Positions 137-11,700 of a stretch of 64,000 bases of DNA are shown one piece after another. Both the position numbers and the translations under genes were made by a program. A model generated the notes under the pieces. The model was not told the origin of the DNA, ran no database searches, and was given only the letters and a program-made list of their open reading frames with translations. Source of the DNA: a virus. The DNA lies in the IMG/VR virus record IMGVR_UViG_3300022413_000008, positions 4,315-68,314 of that record. One strand, 5' to 3'. Within the stretch, counting starts at the first letter, position 1; each line of letters opens with the position of its first letter.

Positions 137-445
137 AGCCTACTTCGATGGCAGTAGGCTTAACCGACAACCACGGCCGCCATCCAGAAAGGGAAACCAA
201 TTTACCCTAACAACCCGACCATGAGACTGACCCGAGTCTAACAAGCGCGGCGTGCTTACCGCTGAGTGGCGGCCTCAAGCGTGCCGTAGTCATGTCCGCC
301 CTTCAAAGCGAGCATGACAAGGGGCGAAAGCCTGACGCCCTGGGCGTCTGTCAAGGGCAGTGTCGGTTAAGTAGGGTCACCTACGAAACCGGCCGAATTT
401 CGGCTGAGAAAAGGGGCGGGCAGGCAACTGCCCGTCCTGCTTATT
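137..445 (+). ncRNA. Candidate structured non-coding RNA or DNA hairpin array
   Basis: Intergenic stretch with about 9 consecutive stem-loops, including GAAA and GCAA tetraloops; no family recognised. Confidence 0.4.
414..445 (+). terminator. Terminator-like hairpin
   Basis: gggcgggcag-gcaa-ctgcccgtcc followed by a weak T-rich tail (tgcttatt). Confidence 0.45.
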
Positions 446-449
446 GATT

Positions 450-581
450 ATGAGTTACGAAGGATGGATATTTCTAGTGGCGTGCTTATGCATATGCAGC
501 ATACTTGTGCGCAAAGCCAAGGCCCATGATGCTGCGGCGAAACGAAGCGGAACCAAACACAGGACAGGCAGGCTGACATGA
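450..581 (+). CDS. Small membrane protein (43 aa)
   Basis: MSYEGWIFLVACLCICSILVRK...; ATGA overlap with next ORF; below ORF-track cutoff. Confidence 0.55.
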   Translation: MSYEGWIFLVACLCICSILVRKAKAHDAAAKRSGTKHRTGRLT

Positions 582-859
582 TGATCCGCAAGATTGAAGA
601 CCTGTTCAGAGTGTTCGGTGTCGAAGGCATGGCCGTGCTAAAGAAAGAGATCTTCAAGACCACCGAATGTGGGGCGTGGATTCGTGAGGTCGACGGAGGA
701 GTGGTGATCGGGAGCATTGTCGAAGGGTCCGATGCAGAAGTCGGGCCGGTCACCTTGCCGTATCCGTTTCCTGTAGAGGACTTTTGGGAGAAATTGCAGG
801 ATGTAGACAACGAAGCATGCAGGCTATGGGAGGAAGTGAATGAGGATTGGGATGACTAA
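578..859 (+). CDS. Hypothetical early protein
   Basis: 93 aa ORF in coupled run. Confidence 0.75.
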   Translation: MMIRKIEDLFRVFGVEGMAVLKKEIFKTTECGAWIREVDGGVVIGSIVEGSDAEVGPVTLPYPFPVEDFWEKLQDVDNEACRLWEEVNEDWDD

Positions 860-965
860 CATACTGATTGCTATTCTGTGCCTGGTGGCAGCCCTACTGC
901 TATTGATGTCATTGGATGAGGCACCTAGAACCGAGCAGCAACAGATACTAATGGGAGGGCCATGA
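852..965 (+). CDS. Small membrane protein (37 aa)
   Basis: MTNILIAILCLVAALLLLMSLDE..., hydrophobic N-terminus, overlaps previous stop. Confidence 0.5.
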   Translation: MTNILIAILCLVAALLLLMSLDEAPRTEQQQILMGGP

Positions 966-1087
966 AGTGGAACCAAAACTAACGACAGCGCAACAGCGCA
1001 TGAAGCAATTTCTGGCGGAGTATGCGGCCTTCAAACGGGGCTTGAAGCCTACCTCACGTCAGAGCAGACCACCAAGGAAACAAAAGA

Positions 1088-1294
1088 ATGACACTGGACG
1101 ATGTAATACTGGTGCGAATTGACCGAGGGCGGGGCCGACGATTCTGTGCGGTACACGTTACCACGACCGGCCAAAAGGTTGGCGAGATAGCTGGCGTGCA
1201 AGCTACGGACGAGCAGATAGAGCTATTAATACAAGCGAAGGAGGAAGCGAATGACAGGGACGATGATGAGCGAGGTCTCTCTCCTAGGGACTAG
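1088..1294 (+). CDS. Hypothetical early protein
   Basis: 68 aa ORF. Confidence 0.55.
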   Translation: MTLDDVILVRIDRGRGRRFCAVHVTTTGQKVGEIAGVQATDEQIELLIQAKEEANDRDDDERGLSPRD

Positions 1295-1454
1295 CCTCCG
1301 GCTGGAGGAAGGGCAACAGGTGCGAATGGACATGCCCACAAACATTCCGGGTGCAGTGGCATCCGGTAAATGGTTTGTCTCCCCGATTGACGGTAGATGG
1401 GGGGACAGCAGCATACTGGTAGATAAACACGAAGTGAAGGCAAATGAAAACTGA
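1251..1454 (+). CDS. Hypothetical early protein
   Basis: 67 aa ORF preceded by ggaggaag. Confidence 0.55.
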   Translation: MTGTMMSEVSLLGTSLRLEEGQQVRMDMPTNIPGAVASGKWFVSPIDGRWGDSSILVDKHEVKANEN

Positions 1455-1623
1455 ACCACTCCTGGTTCCGGTCGACCTATTGCGGCAACTTCGCTACTAT
1501 CTGTATGCATACCGGAACCGGTGTTGGAATTGGTCGTTGGAAGGCAGGAAGGATGAGTATGCGCAACTCGAACAAACGATCAGCGATCTAGACAAACTCT
1601 TACACAGCTGCAATGAAAAATAA
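1444..1623 (+). CDS. Hypothetical early protein (59 aa)
   Basis: MKTEPLLVPVDLLRQLRYYLYAY...; fills the gap between neighbours; below ORF cutoff. Confidence 0.55.
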   Translation: MKTEPLLVPVDLLRQLRYYLYAYRNRCWNWSLEGRKDEYAQLEQTISDLDKLLHSCNEK

Positions 1624-1942
1624 ACCAATACCGGGTGCTGAGGTCTGGTGGTCGAGCGGCTCGGGACGCATAGAATTCAAGATGCCGGAACAGGCAGCGA
1701 TGGATTGTTATCATGTCGGTGCATGCGATGAGGATGTCGAGCATTGGTTGCCTGAGATGCGTGAGCGATTGGCTCATGTGTCTGACGAGGCAATGGTCTT
1801 GGAGCTGAGAGAATACGGGGCATGGGATGCCGAAGAGCTTGCCGACCGTGACGCTAACATTCGTCGGCTAACATGGCTGGCAGCTGGTGACTACCATGAG
1901 GAGGAGGAGCATGACTATGAAGAGCCGGGGAGTATCGAATGA
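1613..1942 (+). CDS. Hypothetical early protein
   Basis: 109 aa; CYHVGACDEDV and LREYGAWDAEEL segments resemble a common phage hypothetical family. Confidence 0.8.
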   Translation: MKNKPIPGAEVWWSSGSGRIEFKMPEQAAMDCYHVGACDEDVEHWLPEMRERLAHVSDEAMVLELREYGAWDAEELADRDANIRRLTWLAAGDYHEEEEHDYEEPGSIE

Positions 1943-2138
1943 TCCAGTATGGACGCTGTTCGAATGCGAGCGCGGCGCACGGTGGTCTTCGGTGTCTGAC
2001 AAGTTAGCTCCTGAGTGGTGCGAGTTCTCTGGCTGCGACAGCCGACGGCATATGGCAGTGATAGTGAAAACAACGACAGATAGAGACGAAGCAAGCAAGT
2101 GGTTCAGGAGACCGGAGGTAACCAATCATGATCACTAA
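1887..2138 (+). CDS. Hypothetical early protein (start uncertain)
   Basis: 83 aa ORF bridging neighbours. Confidence 0.5.
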   Translation: MTTMRRRSMTMKSRGVSNDPVWTLFECERGARWSSVSDKLAPEWCEFSGCDSRRHMAVIVKTTTDRDEASKWFRRPEVTNHDH

Positions 2139-2544
2139 AGAACAGAGAAAGGACATCCAGCGCCGACTCGCCAACCTTTACCGGTGGATTGCTCGGATGC
2201 GCCACCGAAACAGATCAGACTGGGCGAGCTGGAAAGCTGGATCAGAGCCCAGCTACTGCGTAGTGACGAACGAAGAGAGATCGTTAGCGGAAGTGTTTGA
2301 CTGGGTGCATGACCCTCCATCCGAATACTTCCTATACATTGACGTAGAGAAAGGGAAGGCTACGACGTGGATGGGTGACTCGTTAGGGGACGTGACGCTC
2401 GGCAAGCCATATCGAGTCCCGGCGTTCGGGCAGTCATCCGAGCGATGCGCGGTGTGGGTCACCGGGACAAATGGTTGCAAGTATTACGGCACCTACTACA
2501 GGAGCTCCGGCGACTACGCTCGGGTGAAGAGGTGCAAACAATGA
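2128..2544 (+). CDS. Hypothetical early protein
   Basis: 138 aa; TTWMGDSLG...GTNGCKYYG resembles a common phage hypothetical family. Confidence 0.8.
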   Translation: MITKEQRKDIQRRLANLYRWIARMRHRNRSDWASWKAGSEPSYCVVTNEERSLAEVFDWVHDPPSEYFLYIDVEKGKATTWMGDSLGDVTLGKPYRVPAFGQSSERCAVWVTGTNGCKYYGTYYRSSGDYARVKRCKQ

Positions 2545-2735
2545 GGAAAGGAAAGCACTTCCACACGATAACAATCCAAGCCAAGAACGGCACCTTCACC
2601 TTCGAGGGAAAGAAGATCCAGGCCAACCTATGGCAGACCCAAGGTAAGCAGTGGGTACACGTCCAACCCAATGGTGAAGCGGTCACCTACTTCAAGGAGC
2701 CAACACATTTATACTACGAAACGATAATTCTATGA
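2541..2735 (+). CDS. Hypothetical early protein
   Basis: ATGA overlap at 2541; MRKGKHFHTITIQ... Confidence 0.65.
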   Translation: MRKGKHFHTITIQAKNGTFTFEGKKIQANLWQTQGKQWVHVQPNGEAVTYFKEPTHLYYETIIL

Positions 2736-2926
2736 GAGTAGCAATCAGCTTTCTCGCGAATGACATGGGCGATGTTGAGCATGTGGTAGCCCAGCTTGCC
2801 CCCAAGATTGAGCACCAACTAGTCAGGCCTCAGGCATTGTGTAAACATGAGGAGGCAGAGGATCAACTAAGGGACCGCAACGGGAACGTGTGCGGCACAA
2901 TAAAAGTAACAAAGGACACAGAATGA
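2732..2926 (+). CDS. Hypothetical early protein
   Basis: 64 aa with ATGA overlaps on both sides. Confidence 0.65.
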   Translation: MRVAISFLANDMGDVEHVVAQLAPKIEHQLVRPQALCKHEEAEDQLRDRNGNVCGTIKVTKDTE

Positions 2927-3456
2927 GTACAGGAATAGACTACGGACGAGGAATAACAAACATCGACACATCAAATGGCATTCGCTTCGGAGTGGTGGCA
3001 TGCAACGCCCTGTCGCCATGGATATGGGATGATCTAGACCCAGTCTTCGGGCCTCCTGTCTGCAAGGATTGCCAGCATGAAATGGATTACGAGTCGCCGG
3101 ACGATTCAGGCAGGTTCTCGTGTCCAGAGTGTAGCACCCTAACAGATGAGGAGGATGCCTATCCTCATGAACCGGTAGGCTACGAGTATAAATCCGAGAC
3201 GTTGGTGATGCATACCGCATTCGACAACACTGAGCTCTTTGTGACGAAAAGCACACATGCCCGCTGCGTAAAGTTCTGTTCACCGTGTGCTCCCGGCGCG
3301 GGAGACATTGATTCACCGGACGAGAGCGGAGTCTGGGCATACTGCCCACCACCGGAGTGGTTTGGCGAATGCCCGCCGACAGACATTGTGACAACGGAAG
3401 AAGCACTCGAGATCATGAAGAATAACCCACAAGAACATGAACACGGCGTATTTTGA
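2923..3456 (+). CDS. Zn-ribbon-containing early protein
   Basis: MSTGIDYGRGITNID...; CKDC, CPEC and CSPC motifs. Confidence 0.8.
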   Translation: MSTGIDYGRGITNIDTSNGIRFGVVACNALSPWIWDDLDPVFGPPVCKDCQHEMDYESPDDSGRFSCPECSTLTDEEDAYPHEPVGYEYKSETLVMHTAFDNTELFVTKSTHARCVKFCSPCAPGAGDIDSPDESGVWAYCPPPEWFGECPPTDIVTTEEALEIMKNNPQEHEHGVF

Positions 3457-3814
3457 ACTCACTGTAAGGACGAAGGACATCGAGAAGTTCAGTGACTTCG
3501 ATGAGGCTGAAGGAGATGTCAATGTTAGCGTCCTGCGTTGGAAAAGCGGCACCACGGTAGCGCAACCGCACATCGAAGGGGTGCCCTATGTCGGCTATTG
3601 CGGCCCAACTGGCAACTCCCCTGCCGAGCGATGGGTTTACACCGGAGTGGGTTCCCAGGTCGAAGTAATGGAACTGGTCGATGATACCTATGCGATCATG
3701 GCGCCAGTTAATGACAAGGGTCGGGTCTACAGAGACCAAATCGAAGATCAGATCAGAGAGATTGAAAAGTTTGAAGCAACCAGAAGATCAGTGATAGAGG
3801 AGATTAACAAATGA
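3437..3814 (+). CDS. Hypothetical early protein
   Basis: 125 aa ORF, coupled. Confidence 0.7.
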   Translation: MNTAYFELTVRTKDIEKFSDFDEAEGDVNVSVLRWKSGTTVAQPHIEGVPYVGYCGPTGNSPAERWVYTGVGSQVEVMELVDDTYAIMAPVNDKGRVYRDQIEDQIREIEKFEATRRSVIEEINK

Positions 3815-4650
3815 TGAACCAGGAACGAATCGAATGGATACTGGAGCTCGCTCGCTCCGTCGCCGGAAGGGAAGCACTCAACAGGATTGAGGAGATACAG
3901 TTCGGAGAAGTAGGCGAGCGAGGCTATGATAACGAGACACTGACAGCGTTCGCAAATTGGAACAGTGTCAGGGCGTGGGTAAAAGACAAGGGCTACGTTG
4001 GTGAGGAAGACAAAACCATGGAGCGTCTGGCCGCCATCTTCGAGAAGGGAGGCCTCCAGATTGAGTGGTCGGACGAATGGTCTGCTTGCGGCGAGTGCTA
4101 CAAGTATTACCGCACGTCACCGGACGGTTACGATTGGCTACCATCGCTCGTGTGGGAGACTGATTGCGATCTGGTCTGTCCCGAGTGCCTTGACCACGAG
4201 ACGTATCTGGAGAGCATCGAAGGCGACCACAACAAGGCGGTTACCTCTGATGATATCGACCCATCAGAACACGGCTATCACAAGATAGACACCGACTTCG
4301 AGACCGGCTTCCATTCGCACCAAGACGATTCTCCGGAGAAGGTAGCCAAGGCACTCGAGAAGCAAGGGATCGGTCGGTATCTATTCCAGATCGACAGCAC
4401 TGGACAGTTCGATACGAGCTGGGCAGTGTGGATTCACGAAGAGGAGCTCGAGAAATTCAAGGGCCTTGGCAGTGAGGATACCAGATTCGACCTGGGTCAG
4501 TCGCCGGCCGAAGTAATGAAGCGGGGCCTTGAACAAGCAAGCCACGAACACAAGCCGGGCTGCGTCACGGTGAACAAGATCACTCAGACCGGGTGCGAAA
4601 CCAAGTTCGTTCCGCACCAGGACTTCATCGATGGAAAGGCTTTAGAATGA
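3811..4650 (+). CDS. Conserved phage early protein with Zn-binding motifs
   Basis: 279 aa; FANWN, EWSDEWSACGEC and VCPEC. Confidence 0.85.
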   Translation: MMNQERIEWILELARSVAGREALNRIEEIQFGEVGERGYDNETLTAFANWNSVRAWVKDKGYVGEEDKTMERLAAIFEKGGLQIEWSDEWSACGECYKYYRTSPDGYDWLPSLVWETDCDLVCPECLDHETYLESIEGDHNKAVTSDDIDPSEHGYHKIDTDFETGFHSHQDDSPEKVAKALEKQGIGRYLFQIDSTGQFDTSWAVWIHEEELEKFKGLGSEDTRFDLGQSPAEVMKRGLEQASHEHKPGCVTVNKITQTGCETKFVPHQDFIDGKALE

Positions 4651-5682: not shown

Positions 5683-6855
5683 ATGAGTGATACACTAAGA
5701 CAACCCACACAAGGCGCACTGACGCCTGACAGCGCATCGGTAAGCACCTCGGAGGCGTACCGGCAATGGGCAAGCCGCCCGGAAGACGAGCGCTACAGCG
5801 ACCTCGAATCCCTGTTCGACGCATGCGCCTCACGGCGAACCCGATCACGTGAGGTTCACGTTGAAACGGACAAGCTTCAGGTCAAGCAGCATGAGGCGAC
5901 CGGCGAGCTGGTGATCAATGGCGAAACATCCGAATCGAAATGGACTCATTGGAGTTTTGGCCAGACTTGCAATCTGGTTGGGGCGCCAGCGAAATACCTG
6001 CGCGATCTTCCGGATGTCCTGATCAGAGCCAACCTGACCTACGGGCTGGCAACCCAACGGGAAACGATGAAGTTCATGACTGTCCAGCCTGATAATGACA
6101 CCGAGCAGCTCAGCACGCTGCAGGCTGTCACGTCGACTACTTACGGACGGATATGGGACGCTGACTGTGTCAAGGCATGCCAGCACATCGTGGAGCGATC
6201 CAATGGGCGGTTCCACAACCCACTGGCTTATGCGGCGGGCGACTACATGGGGCACAAAGGCACGGAGCCAAGGCCGTCAGGTCTCTACGCCTCCGATCGT
6301 GATGTGTTCATGTTCATGATCGACGGCGGCTCACTGTTGGAAGCTGGGCCTCGGGCCAAACTCAACCGGGGGTTCTTCATGTGGAACAGCGAGGTTGGCT
6401 CGCGATCGTTCGGATTGATGACGTTCCTATTCAACCAGGTCTGTGGGAACCATCTGATCTGGGGTGCGCAGGACGTAAACAAGATCATCATCCGCCACTC
6501 GTCCGGTGGGCCATACCGGTTCGAGACCGAAGGGACGCCAGCGCTGAAGCAGTTCGTGGAGGCGCCGGCTGCCCCGATTGAGGAAGTCCTCCGCAAAGCA
6601 CAAGACTACATGCTGCCTGTCCGGATGGACGGAGACGAGGAGAAGAGCATGCGTGAGTTTGTTGCGAAACGCGCCAAGTTCTCCGCCGCTGAGGTAAGGG
6701 ATGCCATGAAGTTTGCGAGAGCCGAGGAAGGCGAATGTCGCACCTTGTGGCAGCTCGTGCAGGGTTTCACTGCGTCGGCACGTGCGATCCCACACATGGA
6801 CACTCGGATCGACCTCGAGAAGCGAGCGGGCAAGCTCATGTCGTTCGCTGAATAG
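5683..6855 (+). CDS. DUF932 / phage-plasmid LGT-family protein
   Basis: RQWASRPEDERY, THWSFGQ, TYGRIWDAD, GLYASDRDVFMF, WNSEVGSRS and QVCGNHLIWG motifs. Confidence 0.85.
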   Translation: MSDTLRQPTQGALTPDSASVSTSEAYRQWASRPEDERYSDLESLFDACASRRTRSREVHVETDKLQVKQHEATGELVINGETSESKWTHWSFGQTCNLVGAPAKYLRDLPDVLIRANLTYGLATQRETMKFMTVQPDNDTEQLSTLQAVTSTTYGRIWDADCVKACQHIVERSNGRFHNPLAYAAGDYMGHKGTEPRPSGLYASDRDVFMFMIDGGSLLEAGPRAKLNRGFFMWNSEVGSRSFGLMTFLFNQVCGNHLIWGAQDVNKIIIRHSSGGPYRFETEGTPALKQFVEAPAAPIEEVLRKAQDYMLPVRMDGDEEKSMREFVAKRAKFSAAEVRDAMKFARAEEGECRTLWQLVQGFTASARAIPHMDTRIDLEKRAGKLMSFAE

Positions 6856-7002
6856 TCACTGACAACCAACTAACGACCATTGGGGAAACCAATTGGACAA
6901 CAATCGAAAGAGAAAGGCAAGCTCATGTAATTCGATGAATAGGCAGCGACAACCAACTAACGACCATGGGGGAGACCAATTGAACAACAATCGAAAGAGA
7001 AA
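6849..7002 (+). repeat. Imperfect direct repeat, about 67 bp x2, period 87 bp
   Basis: tgaatag...gacaaccaactaacgaccat.gggga.accaattg.acaacaatcgaaagagaaa at 6849-6915 and 6936-7002. Confidence 0.9.
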
Positions 7003-7005
7003 AAC

Positions 7006-7380
7006 ATGGATAATGCAGAGCTAATACTTAAACTTCTGAAGCTATTACCGAACGAAGACAACGAACAGAATCCTCAGAGCGATTCTGAGTGTGAAATGAA
7101 CCCCATCACTGGCACGGTGCTGAGATCCGTCGTTTACCCGGGTGCGAAAGTGCTGATCAGGACAGTGACCAGCTACTTCGCGGGAGTGGTGAGTGAGGTG
7201 GACGACCACTTCATCGCATTGGCACACGCTTCGTGGGTTGCTGACACGGGACGTTTCTCGGACGCGCTAAAGAGCGGGTCATTCACCGAGGTGGAGATGT
7301 ATGATCGGGCCGTGATCGTCGCCGTGGCCGCCGTGGTTGACGTGACGACCCTTCCGGAGGTTCCTGCGAAGCAGAAGTAG
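7006..7380 (+). CDS. Sm/LSm-like fold phage protein (DUF6948-like)
   Basis: KVLIRTVTSYFAGVVSEVDDHFIALAHASWVADTGRF resembles Sm1; VIVAVAAVVDV resembles Sm2. Confidence 0.7.
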   Translation: MDNAELILKLLKLLPNEDNEQNPQSDSECEMNPITGTVLRSVVYPGAKVLIRTVTSYFAGVVSEVDDHFIALAHASWVADTGRFSDALKSGSFTEVEMYDRAVIVAVAAVVDVTTLPEVPAKQK

Positions 7381-7400
7381 GACGCACGATAAAGGCAGGA

Positions 7401-7424
7401 GCAGGCCCATGCACTTGGGCCTGC
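7401..7424 (+). other. Perfect 9-bp hairpin between the Sm-like gene and the repeat array
   Basis: gcaggccca-tgcact-tgggcctgc; no U-tract. Confidence 0.8.
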
Positions 7425-7470
7425 CCTATACCGCAGCAAGGTCACTGTCACATTCATGGAGGTTTGCACT

Positions 7471-7764
7471 ATGACGTATCTAGCGAGTCGGGCATGTTCA
7501 AATGCACGGGCAGAATCAAGGTCACTGACACAGGAACTTGCGCTGTCACGGTCACGGTCACGGACAGGATCGTGGTCACTGGCATGGTCTTTCTCATGGT
7601 CACTGGAAAGGGCATGGGCACGGGCATGGTCACAGTCAAGGGCAGGGTCACAGGCAGGGTCGGAGGCAGGGGCGCTGTCACGGTCAACGACAGTGTCGTG
7701 GTCACATTCACGAACATGTTCAATGTCACTGTCATGGGCACGGCCAAGGAGGTTTCTAATATGA
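7471..7764 (+). CDS. Ser/Arg/Trp-rich mini-protein, unit 1
   Basis: MTYLASR...; ggagg upstream; stop overlaps next ATG. Confidence 0.55.
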   Translation: MTYLASRACSNARAESRSLTQELALSRSRSRTGSWSLAWSFSWSLERAWARAWSQSRAGSQAGSEAGALSRSTTVSWSHSRTCSMSLSWARPRRFLI

Positions 7765-7997
7765 CGTATCTAGCGAGTCCGTCATGGCCATCATCACGAT
7801 CGCGATCATCGCACCGGTCACGTTCAGTGGCCGGGTCAGGGCCATCATCACGATCGCGATCATCGTACCGGTCACGGTCAGGGGCATGGGCACGGTCATG
7901 GTCCCGGTCAATGACAAGGATACGGTCAGGGGTAGGTTCATGGGTAAGGTCAGGGTCACGGGCAACGTCATGTCCCGATAAGAAAGGCACGATATGA
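7761..7997 (+). CDS. Ser/Arg/Trp-rich mini-protein, unit 2
   Basis: MTYLASPSWPSSRSRSS...; aggagg upstream; ATGA overlaps. Confidence 0.55.
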   Translation: MTYLASPSWPSSRSRSSHRSRSVAGSGPSSRSRSSYRSRSGAWARSWSRSMTRIRSGVGSWVRSGSRATSCPDKKGTI

Positions 7998-8200
7998 CAT
8001 ATCTAGCGAGTCCGGATGAGCCCTGTTCGAAGGCATCAGCAAGGTCATGGACAGGGTCACGGTCAGGGGCAGGGACACGGTCATGGGCAAGGACACGGTC
8101 ATGGGCAAGGGCATGGTCATGGGCAGTGGCAGGGCCACGGGCATGGTCAAGGTCAGGGTCACGGGCAACGTCATGTCCCGATAAGAAAGGCACGGCATGA
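7994..8200 (+). CDS. Ser/Arg/Trp-rich mini-protein, unit 3
   Basis: [19 protein letters not shown]...; ATGA overlaps. Confidence 0.55.
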
Positions 8201-8394
8201 CGTATCTAATGAGTCGGGGTGCGCCCTGTTCGAGGGCATCAGCACGGATGAAGCATGGCACCCGGTCGTGGGCAAAGTCACGGACAGGTACACTGTCGCT
8301 ATCACTCACATTCGCATGGTCGTGGGCATGGTCAATCACACGGGGGTGCGCATTCAATCGGTCACGATCACTAGGTAAAAAAGGTTTGTTATGA
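8197..8394 (+). CDS. Ser/Arg/Trp-rich mini-protein, unit 4
   Basis: [17 protein letters not shown]...; ATGA overlaps. Confidence 0.55.
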
Positions 8395-8633
8395 CGTATC
8401 TATCGAGTCCGGGTGAGACCCGTTCGAAGGCAGCATCAAGGTCATGGACAGGGCCACGGTCATGGACAGGGCCACGGTCATGGGCAAGGTCGGCATGGTC
8501 AAGGTCATGGTCACGGTCACGATCAGGATCCTTGGCATGGTCACGGTCATGGTCATGTTGCCGGTCAAGGTCATGTTGCCGGTCACGGGCATGGTCACTG
8601 GCAGGGGTATGGTCGTGGTCACAGGCAAAATGA
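8391..8633 (+). CDS. Ser/Arg/Trp-rich mini-protein, unit 5
   Basis: [19 protein letters not shown]... Confidence 0.55.
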
Positions 8634-8643
8634 TTCAATGGCC

Positions 8644-8850
8644 ATGAGCGCACGAGGGGTCGAGGTTCTCTGTCAGATCTCGGCCCCTCACTTTGTCGCG
8701 GGGATTGTGGCTTGCAATGGCCGGGTTACTCATGCCGCACCGATCGTGCGTTACATGATTGGCTGGACTGGCAAGCAACTTCGGGATTACTGTAGGAAGA
8801 AATCATGGACAATCACCGTAATCACGAAGACCCAAGAAATCCGCAGTTAG
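8644..8850 (+). CDS. Conserved small phage protein
   Basis: [12 protein letters not shown]...[12 protein letters not shown]...RDYCRKKSW resembles a common phage hypothetical family; start could be 8638. Confidence 0.75.
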
Positions 8851-8933
8851 AACCACTCCTCCGGTTTGCTGAGAAGAAGATCCTACGCCACCGGTGCATC
8901 GCCTGCCAGGAAAAAACAGGTAAAGAGGAGACC

Positions 8934-9203
8934 ATGCCGATCAAGAAGACTCAAGACCCACTCGCCCCGGACACCACGGCTGATGTGACTTGGGGCCTGT
9001 GTCCTAACTGCCAGGCCATCATCGATGAGAAAGGCACCATTATTTTCTGTGATGGGCAGCGGTCCAGATGCGCCACGTTTAAGCAAGAATTAGCCGGCCG
9101 GCTCTTCAAGCCCGAGGCCCTAGGCCAGTGTCTGAAAGTAACATCTGCTGAGTTTGACGTGCTTGAAGAGACGTGCCGGAAAATGGCACAAGAAAAAGGT
9201 TGA
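8934..9203 (+). CDS. Hypothetical protein with CxxC
   Basis: gaggag RBS before ATG 8934; WGLCPNCQ. Confidence 0.7.
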   Translation: MPIKKTQDPLAPDTTADVTWGLCPNCQAIIDEKGTIIFCDGQRSRCATFKQELAGRLFKPEALGQCLKVTSAEFDVLEETCRKMAQEKG

Positions 9204-9229
9204 CAGTTCGAAACCCCTGGCGCTATTGT
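9200..9229 (+). promoter_or_regulatory. Sigma70-like promoter, probably leaderless
   Basis: TTGACA (9200) -18 bp- TATTGT -6 nt- ATG (9236), no SD. Confidence 0.5.
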
Positions 9230-9235
9230 GCCGGT

Positions 9236-10186
9236 ATGTCTGAACACAACGATCTTGAACTCATCTCCTCGGCCGAGTCCGTCAATGCTATCGAACGGGC
9301 GCAAATTGACACGCAGGTAGCGACGGCCAAGAAATACCCTCGTTCCCTATCAGAGGCTAAAAAACGCATGCTGGACGTGGTTCAGCTAGACCAGGAGACG
9401 GCAGCTGCCTGCTTCTACACCCTTCCAACCCGACGAGGCGGGGACAAGCCTATCCAGGGGCCGAGCATCCGCCTCGCAGAGGTAGCGATAGCCGCGTATC
9501 AGAACCTGTCGGCGGGCGCACGAATCGTCGCCGATGACGGCAACTTTGTCACGGCCCAGGGAATTTGCTTCGACATGGAGAATAACACTCGGATCACAAT
9601 GGAGGTCAAGAGACGGGTAGTGGACAAGAACGGCAGAAGGTATTCAGAGGACGTAGTCGGAACCACGATGAACGCCGCTTGTGCCATCGCTCTTCGGAAT
9701 GCTGTGCTCAAGGTTATCCCTGGCGCTTTGGTTAAGCCTGTCTACGAGAAGGCATTAGAGTTTGCTGTAGGGGATCAGAAGACACTGGCGATGCGGCGGG
9801 CAAAAGCGGTGAAGCATTTCGTGCAGATGGGGGTAGAGGAACCTCGAATCTTTGCGGCAATTGGTGTCCGGGGCCTAGAGGAAATAGGGATCGAAGAGCT
9901 TACGGTTCTCATGGGGTTGCACACTGCGATTACTGATGGGGCGTCAACTCTTGACGAAGCTTTCCCGGAACTTAGCACACCCAAGAAGTCAGGGCTCACT
10001 GATCCGCCACCACCACAGCCTGCGCCGCCGCGCAAGCGCAAAACCAAGGCAAAAGCCACCGAGGCACCACCACCCGAACCTGAACCCGAACCCGAACCCG
10101 AACCCGAACCCGAACCCGAACCCGAACCAGAACCAGAAGAACTGGCAGGGACTCCTCCGGACGACGATGAACCACAACTATTTTGA
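9236..10186 (+). CDS. Probable ssDNA-annealing/recombination protein with (PE)11 linker and acidic tail
   Basis: QVATAKKYPRS and GPSIRLAE motifs; adjacent to a PD-(D/E)XK nuclease; ends DDDEPQLF. Confidence 0.65.
   Translation: MSEHNDLELISSAESVNAIERAQIDTQVATAKKYPRSLSEAKKRMLDVVQLDQETAAACFYTLPTRRGGDKPIQGPSIRLAEVAIAAYQNLSAGARIVADDGNFVTAQGICFDMENNTRITMEVKRRVVDKNGRRYSEDVVGTTMNAACAIALRNAVLKVIPGALVKPVYEKALEFAVGDQKTLAMRRAKAVKHFVQMGVEEPRIFAAIGVRGLEEIGIEELTVLMGLHTAITDGASTLDEAFPELSTPKKSGLTDPPPPQPAPPRKRKTKAKATEAPPPEPEPEPEPEPEPEPEPEPEPEELAGTPPDDDEPQLF
10073..10138 (+). repeat. Hexamer repeat (CCNGAA)11 encoding (Pro-Glu)11
   Basis: Directly visible tandem repeat. Confidence 0.95.
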
Positions 10187-10398: not shown

Positions 10399-10564
10399 CC
10401 GACGAGCCAAGTGGATCAATCGTCTCGCCGCCAGGCTGTGGATCATGAAACCTGACGAAGGCTCAGCTAAGACCATTGGCCGAAGAATCAAAAAGGCCTA
10501 CCAACAGGTGCCGCGCAACGAACGATTCAAATGGATGTGTGAACTAGAGGACCAAATGAGATGA
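10391..10564 (+). CDS. Small basic hypothetical protein
   Basis: Coupled between neighbours. Confidence 0.6.
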   Translation: MNNRRAKWINRLAARLWIMKPDEGSAKTIGRRIKKAYQQVPRNERFKWMCELEDQMR

Positions 10565-11700
10565 GTGACGAACGAGAAGGATTGCCTAGCGCAAGCGAGC
10601 TCGGCGCAATCGTAGCCTGTCCCGGGTATCAAAACGCGAAGGCTAAATTCCCGACCTCCCCCGAGCGGTACGCGCTGTTTGCCGCAGCTGGTGAGCAAAT
10701 GCACGAGGCTCTCCAGATGTCCGTTGACGGGGAGGATCAGGAGTGGGAAAACCTCTCGGCGCGAGAAGAGTGGGTTGTCAGCGAGTGCATTAAGATTAGG
10801 CGTGCCCTATGTGAGGAACTTCTCGGCAACAAAGATCCATCAAAGTCTTTCACCGAGCAGAGATTCTGGCTGACATCGGCCGGCCGACGGTTATTCTCCA
10901 GTCGCCTGGATTACGCTGCGTTGCGTGCTGATGGGCGCCACCTGCTGGTTGTCGACTACAAGACAGGGCCGGGCCATTACCCCGAAGCGACAATGAATTG
11001 GCAGATTCATGGCGGAATCGCAGCCTTCTGCTCCCAGGAAAACGCATCCCTCAATGGTCTTCAGCGGGTCTATGGAGCAATCATCCAGCCTCTAGTCACA
11101 CGGAAACCTGTCGTTCTGGAACTAGATCCTGGCGAGATAGCTCCCCTGCAGACGCAGATCAGCCATGCAATTGCCGCGAGCAACCTCAAGAGTCCTCCCA
11201 GGATACCTGGAATGCACTGCATCTATTGTCCTGCTAGAGGAGCCTGCCCTGAGGCACAATCCGCCGCACCTCTGACCATCGAGACTAGATGGAAGGAGGG
11301 ATTGCCACATCTGACGCCTGCTGCGATCACCAAGTTGTTGCCTTTTATCCCAGTGATCCAGAGCCGACTCGATGCACTGCGGGAGTTGGCCAAAGAAATT
11401 CTGGCGAAAGATCCTGATGGGTTGCCAGGTTACACCCTGAAGGAAGTAGGCGCCGGCCGTAAGATCACCGACGTTAACAAGTTTGCCGCAGTGGTGGCTG
11501 ATTACGTGACACGCGATGAACTCCGTCCGCTGATGACCATTCCCAATGCTAAGGTGCGAGAGCTGTGGGTCTCCCGGGCAGCCAAAGACCAATCGATCAC
11601 GAAGAAGGAAGCTACCGACCGTTGGGAACTGCTAATCGAAGAAGTGTCAGAACCTAACCCGACACAGAAGCGATTGTTCAAGAAAGGTAAAAGCAAATGA
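10561..11700 (+). CDS. Cas4-like PD-(D/E)XK exonuclease (DUF2800-like)
   Basis: PSAS...ACPG, G..MH, EQRF, RLD, VVDYKTG, Q and PG.HC.YCPARGAC motifs. Confidence 0.85.
   Translation: MSDEREGLPSASELGAIVACPGYQNAKAKFPTSPERYALFAAAGEQMHEALQMSVDGEDQEWENLSAREEWVVSECIKIRRALCEELLGNKDPSKSFTEQRFWLTSAGRRLFSSRLDYAALRADGRHLLVVDYKTGPGHYPEATMNWQIHGGIAAFCSQENASLNGLQRVYGAIIQPLVTRKPVVLELDPGEIAPLQTQISHAIAASNLKSPPRIPGMHCIYCPARGACPEAQSAAPLTIETRWKEGLPHLTPAAITKLLPFIPVIQSRLDALRELAKEILAKDPDGLPGYTLKEVGAGRKITDVNKFAAVVADYVTRDELRPLMTIPNAKVRELWVSRAAKDQSITKKEATDRWELLIEEVSEPNPTQKRLFKKGKSK

Follow-up and report, generated by a model that had tools for sequence, protein, structure and literature searches.

An acidic Sm-fold protein gene followed by five coupled genes for basic Ser-Trp/Arg/Gly micro-proteins: a candidate two-part phage module

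We describe a candidate module in the genome of a phage represented by IMGVR_UViG_3300022413_000008, a 73-kb IMG/VR virus record whose completeness was judged to be 95%. The analysis covered 64 kb of this record, referred to here as the window. The module combines a gene for an acidic protein with a predicted Sm-like fold and, after a short gap, five apparently paralogous and translationally coupled genes that would be read from ATG into basic micro-proteins of 65–97 amino acids. The best overall explanation of the data is a two-part phage module that works at the protein level, an acidic Sm-fold barrel with basic micro-proteins, located among replication and recombination genes; we put the probability of this reading at roughly one half. 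Of the anatomy of the module we are highly confident. Its elements are listed below.

7006-7380, + strand: Sm-like protein gene, 124 amino acids; open reading frame (ORF) with predicted Sm-like fold
7401-7424, + strand: perfect 9-bp GC-rich hairpin with a 6-nt loop; stem arms GCAGGCCCA and TGGGCCTGC
7471-7764, + strand: micro-protein 1, 97 amino acids, head MTYLASR, net charge about +10; GGAGG 9 nt upstream
7761-7997, + strand: micro-protein 2, 78 amino acids, head MTYLASP, net charge about +15; ATGA overlap with unit 1
7994-8200, + strand: micro-protein 3, 68 amino acids, net charge about +8.5; ATGA overlap with unit 2
8197-8394, + strand: micro-protein 4, 65 amino acids, head MTYLMSR, net charge about +12; the most degenerate copy
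8391-8633, + strand: micro-protein 5, 80 amino acids, head MTYLSSP, net charge about +13.5; end of the module

The first-pass annotation, made from the sequence alone, had described the ORF, the hairpin, and five coupled units of a hexamer repeat, all of which are present at these positions. It had also carried the module on to 8850, an overshoot of about 217 bases; the boundary lies at 8633, and the stretch 8634–8850 belongs to a separate, conserved small gene.

The hexamer NGGNCA occurs 79 times in 7471–8633, compared with 7.1 ± 2.3 times in shuffled sequence and a median of five times in other 1.16-kb segments. This is the only NGGNCA hot spot in the window, and no additional copy of the array was found in the whole 73-kb record. 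The five units, which start at 7471, 7761, 7994, 8197, and 8391, open with a near-identical 19-nt head that includes ATGAC[G/A]TATCTA. Each is preceded by a purine-rich stretch resembling a ribosome-binding site (RBS), GGAGG for units 1 and 2 and AAAGG for units 3–5, and successive genes are joined by stop/start ATGA overlaps. Their products contain 99 [S/A/T/P][W/R/G] dipeptides in 388 residues and have an isoelectric point (pI) of 11.5–12 and net charges of +8.5 to +14.6. Units 2 and 3 have an identical C-terminal tail, and units 3–5 have about 55 nt of head in common. Tandem Repeats Finder identified a 54-nt internal duplication in unit 2 (7781–7885) and a 203-nt period that spans 7939–8328, which shows units 3 and 4 to be a recent duplication.

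The same arrangement recurs widely. We compared 79 loci from IMG/VR, 27 from metagenome-assembled genomes (MAGs) or genomes, and four obtained by exact look-up (individual loci are numbered L001 onward, individual proteins P0002 and so on). A Sm-like homolog is followed at once by a small Ser-X ORF at 69 of 80 loci, mostly from IMG/VR, and at 24 of the 27 MAG loci, which bears out the statement in the first-pass annotation that this family is often followed by a Ser-Arg or Gly-x repeat ORF. The survey of homolog neighborhoods that it had proposed finds repeats adjoining the homologs at about nine in ten of ~100 loci. One to eleven small ORFs lie directly behind the Sm-like gene; each encodes a short conserved head (consensus MNAAILRTGFD.S) and a body that alternates Ser with Trp, Arg, or Gly. 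A run of (Ser-[W/R/G])n with at least four repeats occupies one frame just past the Sm-like stop codon at about 95 related loci. In 64 of 82 cases the start of the small ORF overlaps or abuts that stop codon, lying 4 nt or 1 nt ahead of its end; the window departs from this rule, having a 90-nt gap with a hairpin instead.

The expansion of the partner to five copies, already remarked on in the earlier annotation, is real, and arrays of 2 to 11 occur in other lineages too; five-copy arrays are unusual, not unique. The closest relative of the window protein, P0002 of L001, is a tandem two-barrel protein that precedes the largest array seen, 11 coupled ORFs of like composition. Further multi-copy arrays are found at L024 (8+1), L032 (5+1), L019 (5), L049 (5–6), L083, and L046. 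The barrels of multi-copy loci share 33–52% identity (apart from two close pairs, L024/L032 at 98% and L049/L083 at 69%) and are no closer to one another than to those of single-copy loci, which indicates that array expansion occurred several times independently.

Phage and prophage contigs carrying the module are assigned to more than 12 phyla, although the taxonomic labels that phage-sized contigs carry in MAGs may reflect errors of binning; the MAG matches include Isosphaeraceae, Acidimicrobiia, and Chlorobiota contigs longer than 300 kb. In a look for cultured phages, tblastn of 50,697 GenBank phage records returned only one weak match, to an uncultured Caudoviricetes. Clustering of 1354 neighboring ORFs revealed no third partner gene common to more than about 13 of 100 loci. 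The recurrent neighbors are ordinary replication and recombination genes (ERF, RecT, YqaJ, PDDEXK, helicases, and VapE), present at no more than 7–13 loci each. The partnership of the Sm-like protein with the micro-proteins is established in the form of genomic linkage only.

Across the five units of the window, the ATG frame contains no stop codon, and the other two + frames contain 17 and 5. Between L003 and L004 the heads vary synonymously (AGG and CGG for Arg, CTA and TTA for Leu). The dominant Ser codon tracks GC content and differs among arrays (TCG in 54, TCA in 12, AGC in 9, TCT in 7, and AGT in 2), so that the products of the shifted frame differ by lineage, reading Gly-Arg, Gly-His/Gln, Gly-Ala, Gly-Leu, or Gly-Val with nothing conserved. 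All six Ser codons appear in the 11 ORFs of L001, which lack any hexamer periodicity. Because related loci keep the heads, the overlaps, and the Ser-[W/R/G] pattern despite changing Ser codons, the conserved object is best regarded as the peptide in the ATG frame and not as the repeat RNA. ORFs on the − strand (7469–7990, 7756–8193, 7968–8357, and 8354–8653) and in the two other + frames of the array are open because the repeat contains no stops; they were rejected as genes, their products not being conserved between lineages. Public gene calls often put the repeat on the wrong strand or in the wrong frame (e.g., L003, 5377–5637, − strand), and in L001 the 2.3-kb stretch with ten of the 11 micro-protein ORFs has no called gene.

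It might be argued that the real product is a Gly-His/Gln-rich, possibly metal-binding protein of another frame (ORFs 8016–8378 and 8413–8850), given that in the GGN-CAN frame each variable base of NGGNCA falls at a third codon position and that ORF 8413–8850 continues into the next gene. We find this scarcely credible. The apparent synonymy is a product of the geometry of NGG codons, since a shift of one base turns position 1 of NGG into position 3; it is this frame that contains the 17 stops, it has no conserved start or RBS, and its dipeptides are replaced by others in relatives, as described above. The long ORF 8413–8850 is the separate small gene plus a chance-open extension through the unit 5 repeat, and the small gene (8638–8850) has homologs of 54–59 amino acids, with 46–73% identity, in phages that lack the module and its array (L113 and L114).

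The nature of the selection acting on the peptides was approached through their composition, using 84 unique peptides from loci of 30–72% GC. The W:R:G ratio is 0.31:0.35:0.34. The W share has the variance expected of a binomial and shows no correlation with GC between 0.30 and 0.72, whereas the synonymous choice between CGG and AGG tracks GC (r = 0.55, p = 2e-6). Because the ratio is constant over this range while synonymous codons follow GC, the peptide rather than the repeat RNA appears to be what is selected. W, R, and G follow one another in random order (p = 0.22), and the last four positions are slightly enriched in Arg (0.43 versus 0.34, p = 3e-4). By this test, selection holds a roughly equal mix of the three residues, such that composition matters and exact sequence does not. 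Trp has only the codon TGG, and CGG, AGG, and GGG are in use because they are its one-step neighbors. Changes have saturated the first base of NGG, yet the true-frame wobble bases of any one array are almost uniform. Concerted evolution explains this most simply: slippage and unequal recombination would homogenize neutral wobble bases within an array while lineages diverge.

The assignment of the protein encoded at 7006–7380 to the Sm fold comes from its AlphaFold2 (AF2) model, which has a predicted local distance difference test score (pLDDT) of 86, with core residues 45–118 above 90. The model comprises an N-terminal helix (3–13), a low-confidence linker (14–44), and a beta-barrel core (45–118). 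The helix followed by a strongly bent five-stranded antiparallel sheet is the arrangement that marks the fold, and an additional helix (residues 84–90) is inserted after strand 3. In Foldseek, nearly all of the top 50 PDB matches are Sm, LSm, or archaeal SmAP chains or LSm domains, the best including the LSm domains of EDC3 and LSM14. Superposition on the best PDB Sm/LSm structures gives VIA Z scores of 8.9–8.0 and a root-mean-square deviation of 1.9–3.5 Å over 58–71 residues; a Z near 8 is borderline by itself, though the list of Sm/LSm matches is uniform. Hfq chains score lower (Z 5.6–6.4). Structural neighbors in AFDB, BFVD, and ESM Atlas are unnamed phage proteins, DUF6948, and LSm-domain proteins.

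At the level of sequence the picture differs. None of 119 family members matches the Pfam hidden Markov models (HMMs) for LSM (PF01423) or Hfq (PF17209) at E ≤ 1, the family profile matches nothing among PDB sequences at E ≤ 10, and searches of Pfam, PHROGs, and PDB sequences returned no family for either the Sm-like protein or the micro-proteins. Across the same 119 sequences, which include the window protein, R52, T53, V54, T55, G60, W77, G82, R83, F84, and E97 are invariant, and the loop 3 columns (64–68) are variable. The family signature, IRTVT ... W[IV]ADTGRF ... E.E ... D, is present in the window protein, and its conserved residues (IRTVT, W-x-ADTGRF, E-x-E, and D112) differ from those of the Sm1 and Sm2 motifs, whose hallmarks are a conserved Asp/Asn in loop 3 and Arg-Gly in loop 5. 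The Sm1/Sm2-like pattern claimed for this ORF in the first-pass annotation therefore survives as a fold, in the AF2, Foldseek, and VIA results, and fails as a set of sequence motifs. We describe the protein as Sm-like by predicted fold, and do not place it in the Sm/LSm family because it lacks the Sm1/Sm2 motifs and has no Pfam, PHROG, or PDB sequence match.

The family itself is large, with 183 homologs retrieved by a word search and 2033 cluster representatives by a profile search. Tandem versions with two barrels in one chain exist (P0002, at 3537–4172 of L001; P0122; and P0131), a hint that the domains may sit side by side.

The hairpin at 7401–7424 lies within the 90-nt gap that separates the Sm-like gene from the first micro-protein gene. 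Three perfect hairpins of at least 9 bp occur in the window, compared with 1.4 ± 1.3 in shuffled sequence, so the 9-bp stem alone is within chance expectation. An intrinsic terminator was considered and rejected, as the stem is followed by CCTATACCGC, with no U tract. A role in stabilizing, processing, or attenuating the mRNA is possible. Among relatives with a gap, strong stem-loops directly follow the Sm-like gene in L008, L021, L035, L045, L083, and L001, though their sequences are unrelated. These have stems of 8–16 bp and z-scores of −2.5 to −8.4 (L008, −8.4; L035, −5.1; L045, −3.8; L021, −3.4), and none has a U tract. In L024, L032, and L107 the gap is present and a strong stem is absent. 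Most relatives have no gap; a clear one is found at six loci only, two of them with z ≤ −2.5.

How such a module might work can be sketched tentatively, along the lines of the co-assembly of peptides with a ring that the first-pass annotation had put forward as its second option. The Sm-like protein would form an oligomer, to which the micro-proteins would add detachable, multivalent basic tails, the conserved head of each docking on the barrel to give a nucleic-acid-binding assembly. Arg and Trp would serve as "stickers," spaced by Ser and Gly, that bind RNA or single-stranded DNA, so that barrel, peptides, and nucleic acid could come together in a ribonucleoprotein-like complex or condensate during infection; additional gene copies would raise dose or valency. 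The charges of the two parts are complementary. The barrel is acidic, with a negative net charge in 105 of 119 family members (median −3) and a pI of 4.6 and net charge of about −8 in the window, and the peptides are polycationic, with a positive charge in 89 of 89 from related loci. The bodies of the micro-proteins are probably disordered, as suggested by low-confidence models. A single complex prediction, of the Sm-like protein with micro-protein 3, gave a score of 0.00 and a peptide pLDDT of 38–40, values that count neither for nor against binding. In its most specific form, which we regard as unlikely, the proposal becomes a minimal "sticker-and-spacer" condensate system found in phages of many phyla, in which a Sm-fold hub carries head-docked, random-copolymer micro-proteins, a copy number of 1–11 sets the valency, and RNA or single-stranded DNA is drawn into a phage ribonucleoprotein body.

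Several observations weigh against the two-part, protein-level reading or limit it. The Sm-like protein has no canonical Sm1/Sm2 motifs, and the G-R-G found before the last strand in about 68% of the family is replaced in the window protein by A-V-A; for both reasons a canonical uridine pocket is unlikely there. The 12 longer family members inspected proved to be N-terminal miscalls or tandem barrels, and none of them joined a barrel to a repeat tail. In the window array, Ser occupies only about 55% of the small positions (TCA 72), with Ala, Thr, and Pro sharing the rest through NCA codons (GCA 39, ACA 15). Its heads are short (MTYL[A/S/M]S) and unlike the common MNAAILRTGFD type, although similar MRYL and MIYL heads occur elsewhere, and the window copy may work differently from the others. 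Finally, 97.5% of variable-position codons are NGG and the purity of the Ser codon within an array has a median of 1.00, so there may be an added constraint at the RNA or DNA level on "GG every 6 nt."

The opposite charges admit another interpretation, which we hold to be unlikely: a polycationic effector and its acidic keeper. The Arg/Trp peptides would be the active agents and would poison the host by coating its ribosomes, RNA, nucleoid, or membrane, in the manner of arginine-rich dipeptide repeats and Arg/Trp antimicrobial peptides. The Sm-like protein, instead of being an RNA-binding ring, would serve as a co-translated chaperone or neutralizer by which the peptides are controlled or delivered. 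The interpretation draws on the charge of the peptides (+8.5 to +14.6, pI about 12) beside that of their partner (about −8, pI 4.6), a pattern seen family-wide; on tight translational coupling, typical of pairs made in a fixed ratio; and on the absence of canonical Sm RNA-pocket residues. There is also an analogy, in that one report (PMC7814465) describes importins as binding and taming arginine-rich dipeptide repeats. However, one-to-one neutralization is improbable with a median family charge of −3 against +10 per peptide, Gly at one third of the variable positions would dilute activity on membranes, and the usual neighbors are replication and recombination genes rather than lysis genes.

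Two further alternatives deny the peptides a primary role. That the arrays are a by-product of slippage, with hexamers expanding selfishly or neutrally and the peptides functionless except that ribosome transit might tune neighboring genes, would fit the extreme variation in length, copy number (1–11), and sequence among close relatives, the random order of W, R, and G, and a codon usage unlike that of the rest of the phage (TCA makes up 75% of Ser codons in the array and 15% outside it). Yet the arrays persist behind one gene family, at about 90% of roughly 100 loci in many phyla, and they do so with the frame always open, the heads conserved, Ser retained through codons that are not interconvertible, and the composition constant, all of which neutral repeats would lose; we judge this account quite unlikely. 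Still less likely, in our view, is an element acting as RNA, the first of the ideas advanced in the first-pass annotation, in which the repeat transcript, with GG every six bases, would be a ligand, decoy, or autoregulatory site of a Sm-like oligomer and its translation incidental or regulatory. Sm and Hfq rings do bind short periodic RNA motifs, the 97.5% NGG content and near-invariant wobble bases exceed what peptide coding needs, and a hairpin stands ahead of the array in the window and in several relatives. But from one lineage to another the remaining four bases of the hexamer vary among Ser codons only, even between TCN and AGY, which have no base in common; in L001 the peptides persist in the absence of hexamer periodicity; W:R:G is constant over GC 0.30–0.72, a range across which the synonymous choice of CGG or AGG drifts with base composition; the heads are conserved, as are the start-stop overlaps; and no Rfam family matches 6700–9000 at E ≤ 1.

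The module lies in a block of early genes on the + strand, with the following neighbors.

5683-6855, + strand: gene for a DUF932-like phrog_1362 protein, upstream of the Sm-like gene
about 8638-8850, + strand: small conserved gene, downstream of the micro-protein array
8805-9203, + strand: ORF of 132 amino acids with Cys-x-x-Cys pairs, early-gene block
9173-10186, + strand: gene for a phrog_3657 protein, early-gene block
10561-11700, + strand: exonuclease gene, early-gene block

Immediately upstream of the Sm-like gene, positions 6829–7002 form an 87-bp tandem duplication (2.0 copies, 89% identity). Copy 1 comprises the end codons and stop of the DUF932-like gene plus spacer, and copy 2 leaves a minimal ATG-TAA at about 6926–6931 and supplies the purine-rich stretch ahead of the Sm-like ATG at 7006. 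A scan of the + strand from 7000 to 8700 for promoters and terminators found nothing. In L113, a relative by way of the 8638-type gene, positions 316–4070 encode a radical SAM protein (weak match), PTPS/QueD, GTP cyclohydrolase I, and QueC, a 7-deazaguanine-type gene set that suggests DNA base modification. At its C-terminus the phrog_3657 protein has a long run of Pro-Glu dipeptides (PEPEPE..., about 10080–10160); this second dipeptide-repeat tract is acidic and lies 1.5 kb downstream of the basic arrays. Sediment and estuary metagenomes contain short contigs of low depth that are identical to the window. Four sediment and estuary runs yielded no variant in array length, and no RNA run was listed as containing the stretch.

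The Sm-like family amounts to about 2000 clusters at 50% identity, from phage and prophage contigs assigned to more than a dozen phyla. Neither gene, however, has an entry in Pfam or PHROGs, and the module is hidden from standard annotation, its peptide genes often being missed or called in the wrong frame or strand. It offers a clean natural case of protein evolution by repeat turnover, in which composition is selected and sequence is effectively random, and the five diverged paralogs make the window a good starting point for work on dose and valency. If the peptides and the Sm-fold protein do act on nucleic acids, bacterial viruses would be using the eukaryotic type of design, a barrel with a basic disordered tail, and the module would provide a small, tunable system for studies of polycation-RNA assembly.

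The module belongs to none of the families with which it was compared, namely Sm/LSm proteins with tails, Hfq, RS domains, and dipeptide repeats, and full-text literature searches gave no description of it. Its nearest viral structural neighbors are DUF6948 (PF22253) and other unnamed small beta-barrels of phages (BFVD E about 4e-4, TM about 0.5; ESM Atlas). The likeness to DUF6948, of which the literature search found no mention, exists at the level of fold and embedding only, as none of the 119 Sm-like family members matches the DUF6948 HMM. Hfq resembles the module in being a small prokaryotic Sm-fold protein with a disordered extension that modulates nucleic-acid binding. The fold match is weak (VIA Z about 6), however, and poorer than that to Sm/LSm; the phage protein lacks the Hfq sequence signature; and the tail of Hfq is fused and acidic, whereas in the phage it is the barrel that is acidic and the peptides are separate and basic. 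The RS domains of SR factors and the poly-GR and poly-PR products of C9orf72 are likewise Arg-rich alternating dipeptides from hexanucleotide repeats, disordered and polycationic, and both bind RNA and drive phase separation. They are eukaryotic, fused to an RNA recognition motif or produced by pathological expansion, and without Trp, whereas the phage repeats are selected, free-standing genes with a conserved head.

A further parallel is with eukaryotic Sm/LSm proteins that carry tails, Arg-Gly in SmD1, SmD3, and SmB and RGG in LSm4 and LSm14/Scd6, which join a barrel to an Arg-rich, disordered dipeptide repeat spaced by Gly or Ser. This likeness is best regarded as analogy, not homology. In the phage, the barrel is without Sm1/Sm2 motifs and without a Pfam LSM match, and the tail is Ser-X with about one third Trp instead of Arg-Gly, made as a separate polypeptide in one to eleven copies. 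Should the "sticker-and-spacer" proposal be right, the module would be a viral, two-polypeptide counterpart of the eukaryotic Sm/LSm proteins with RG tails.

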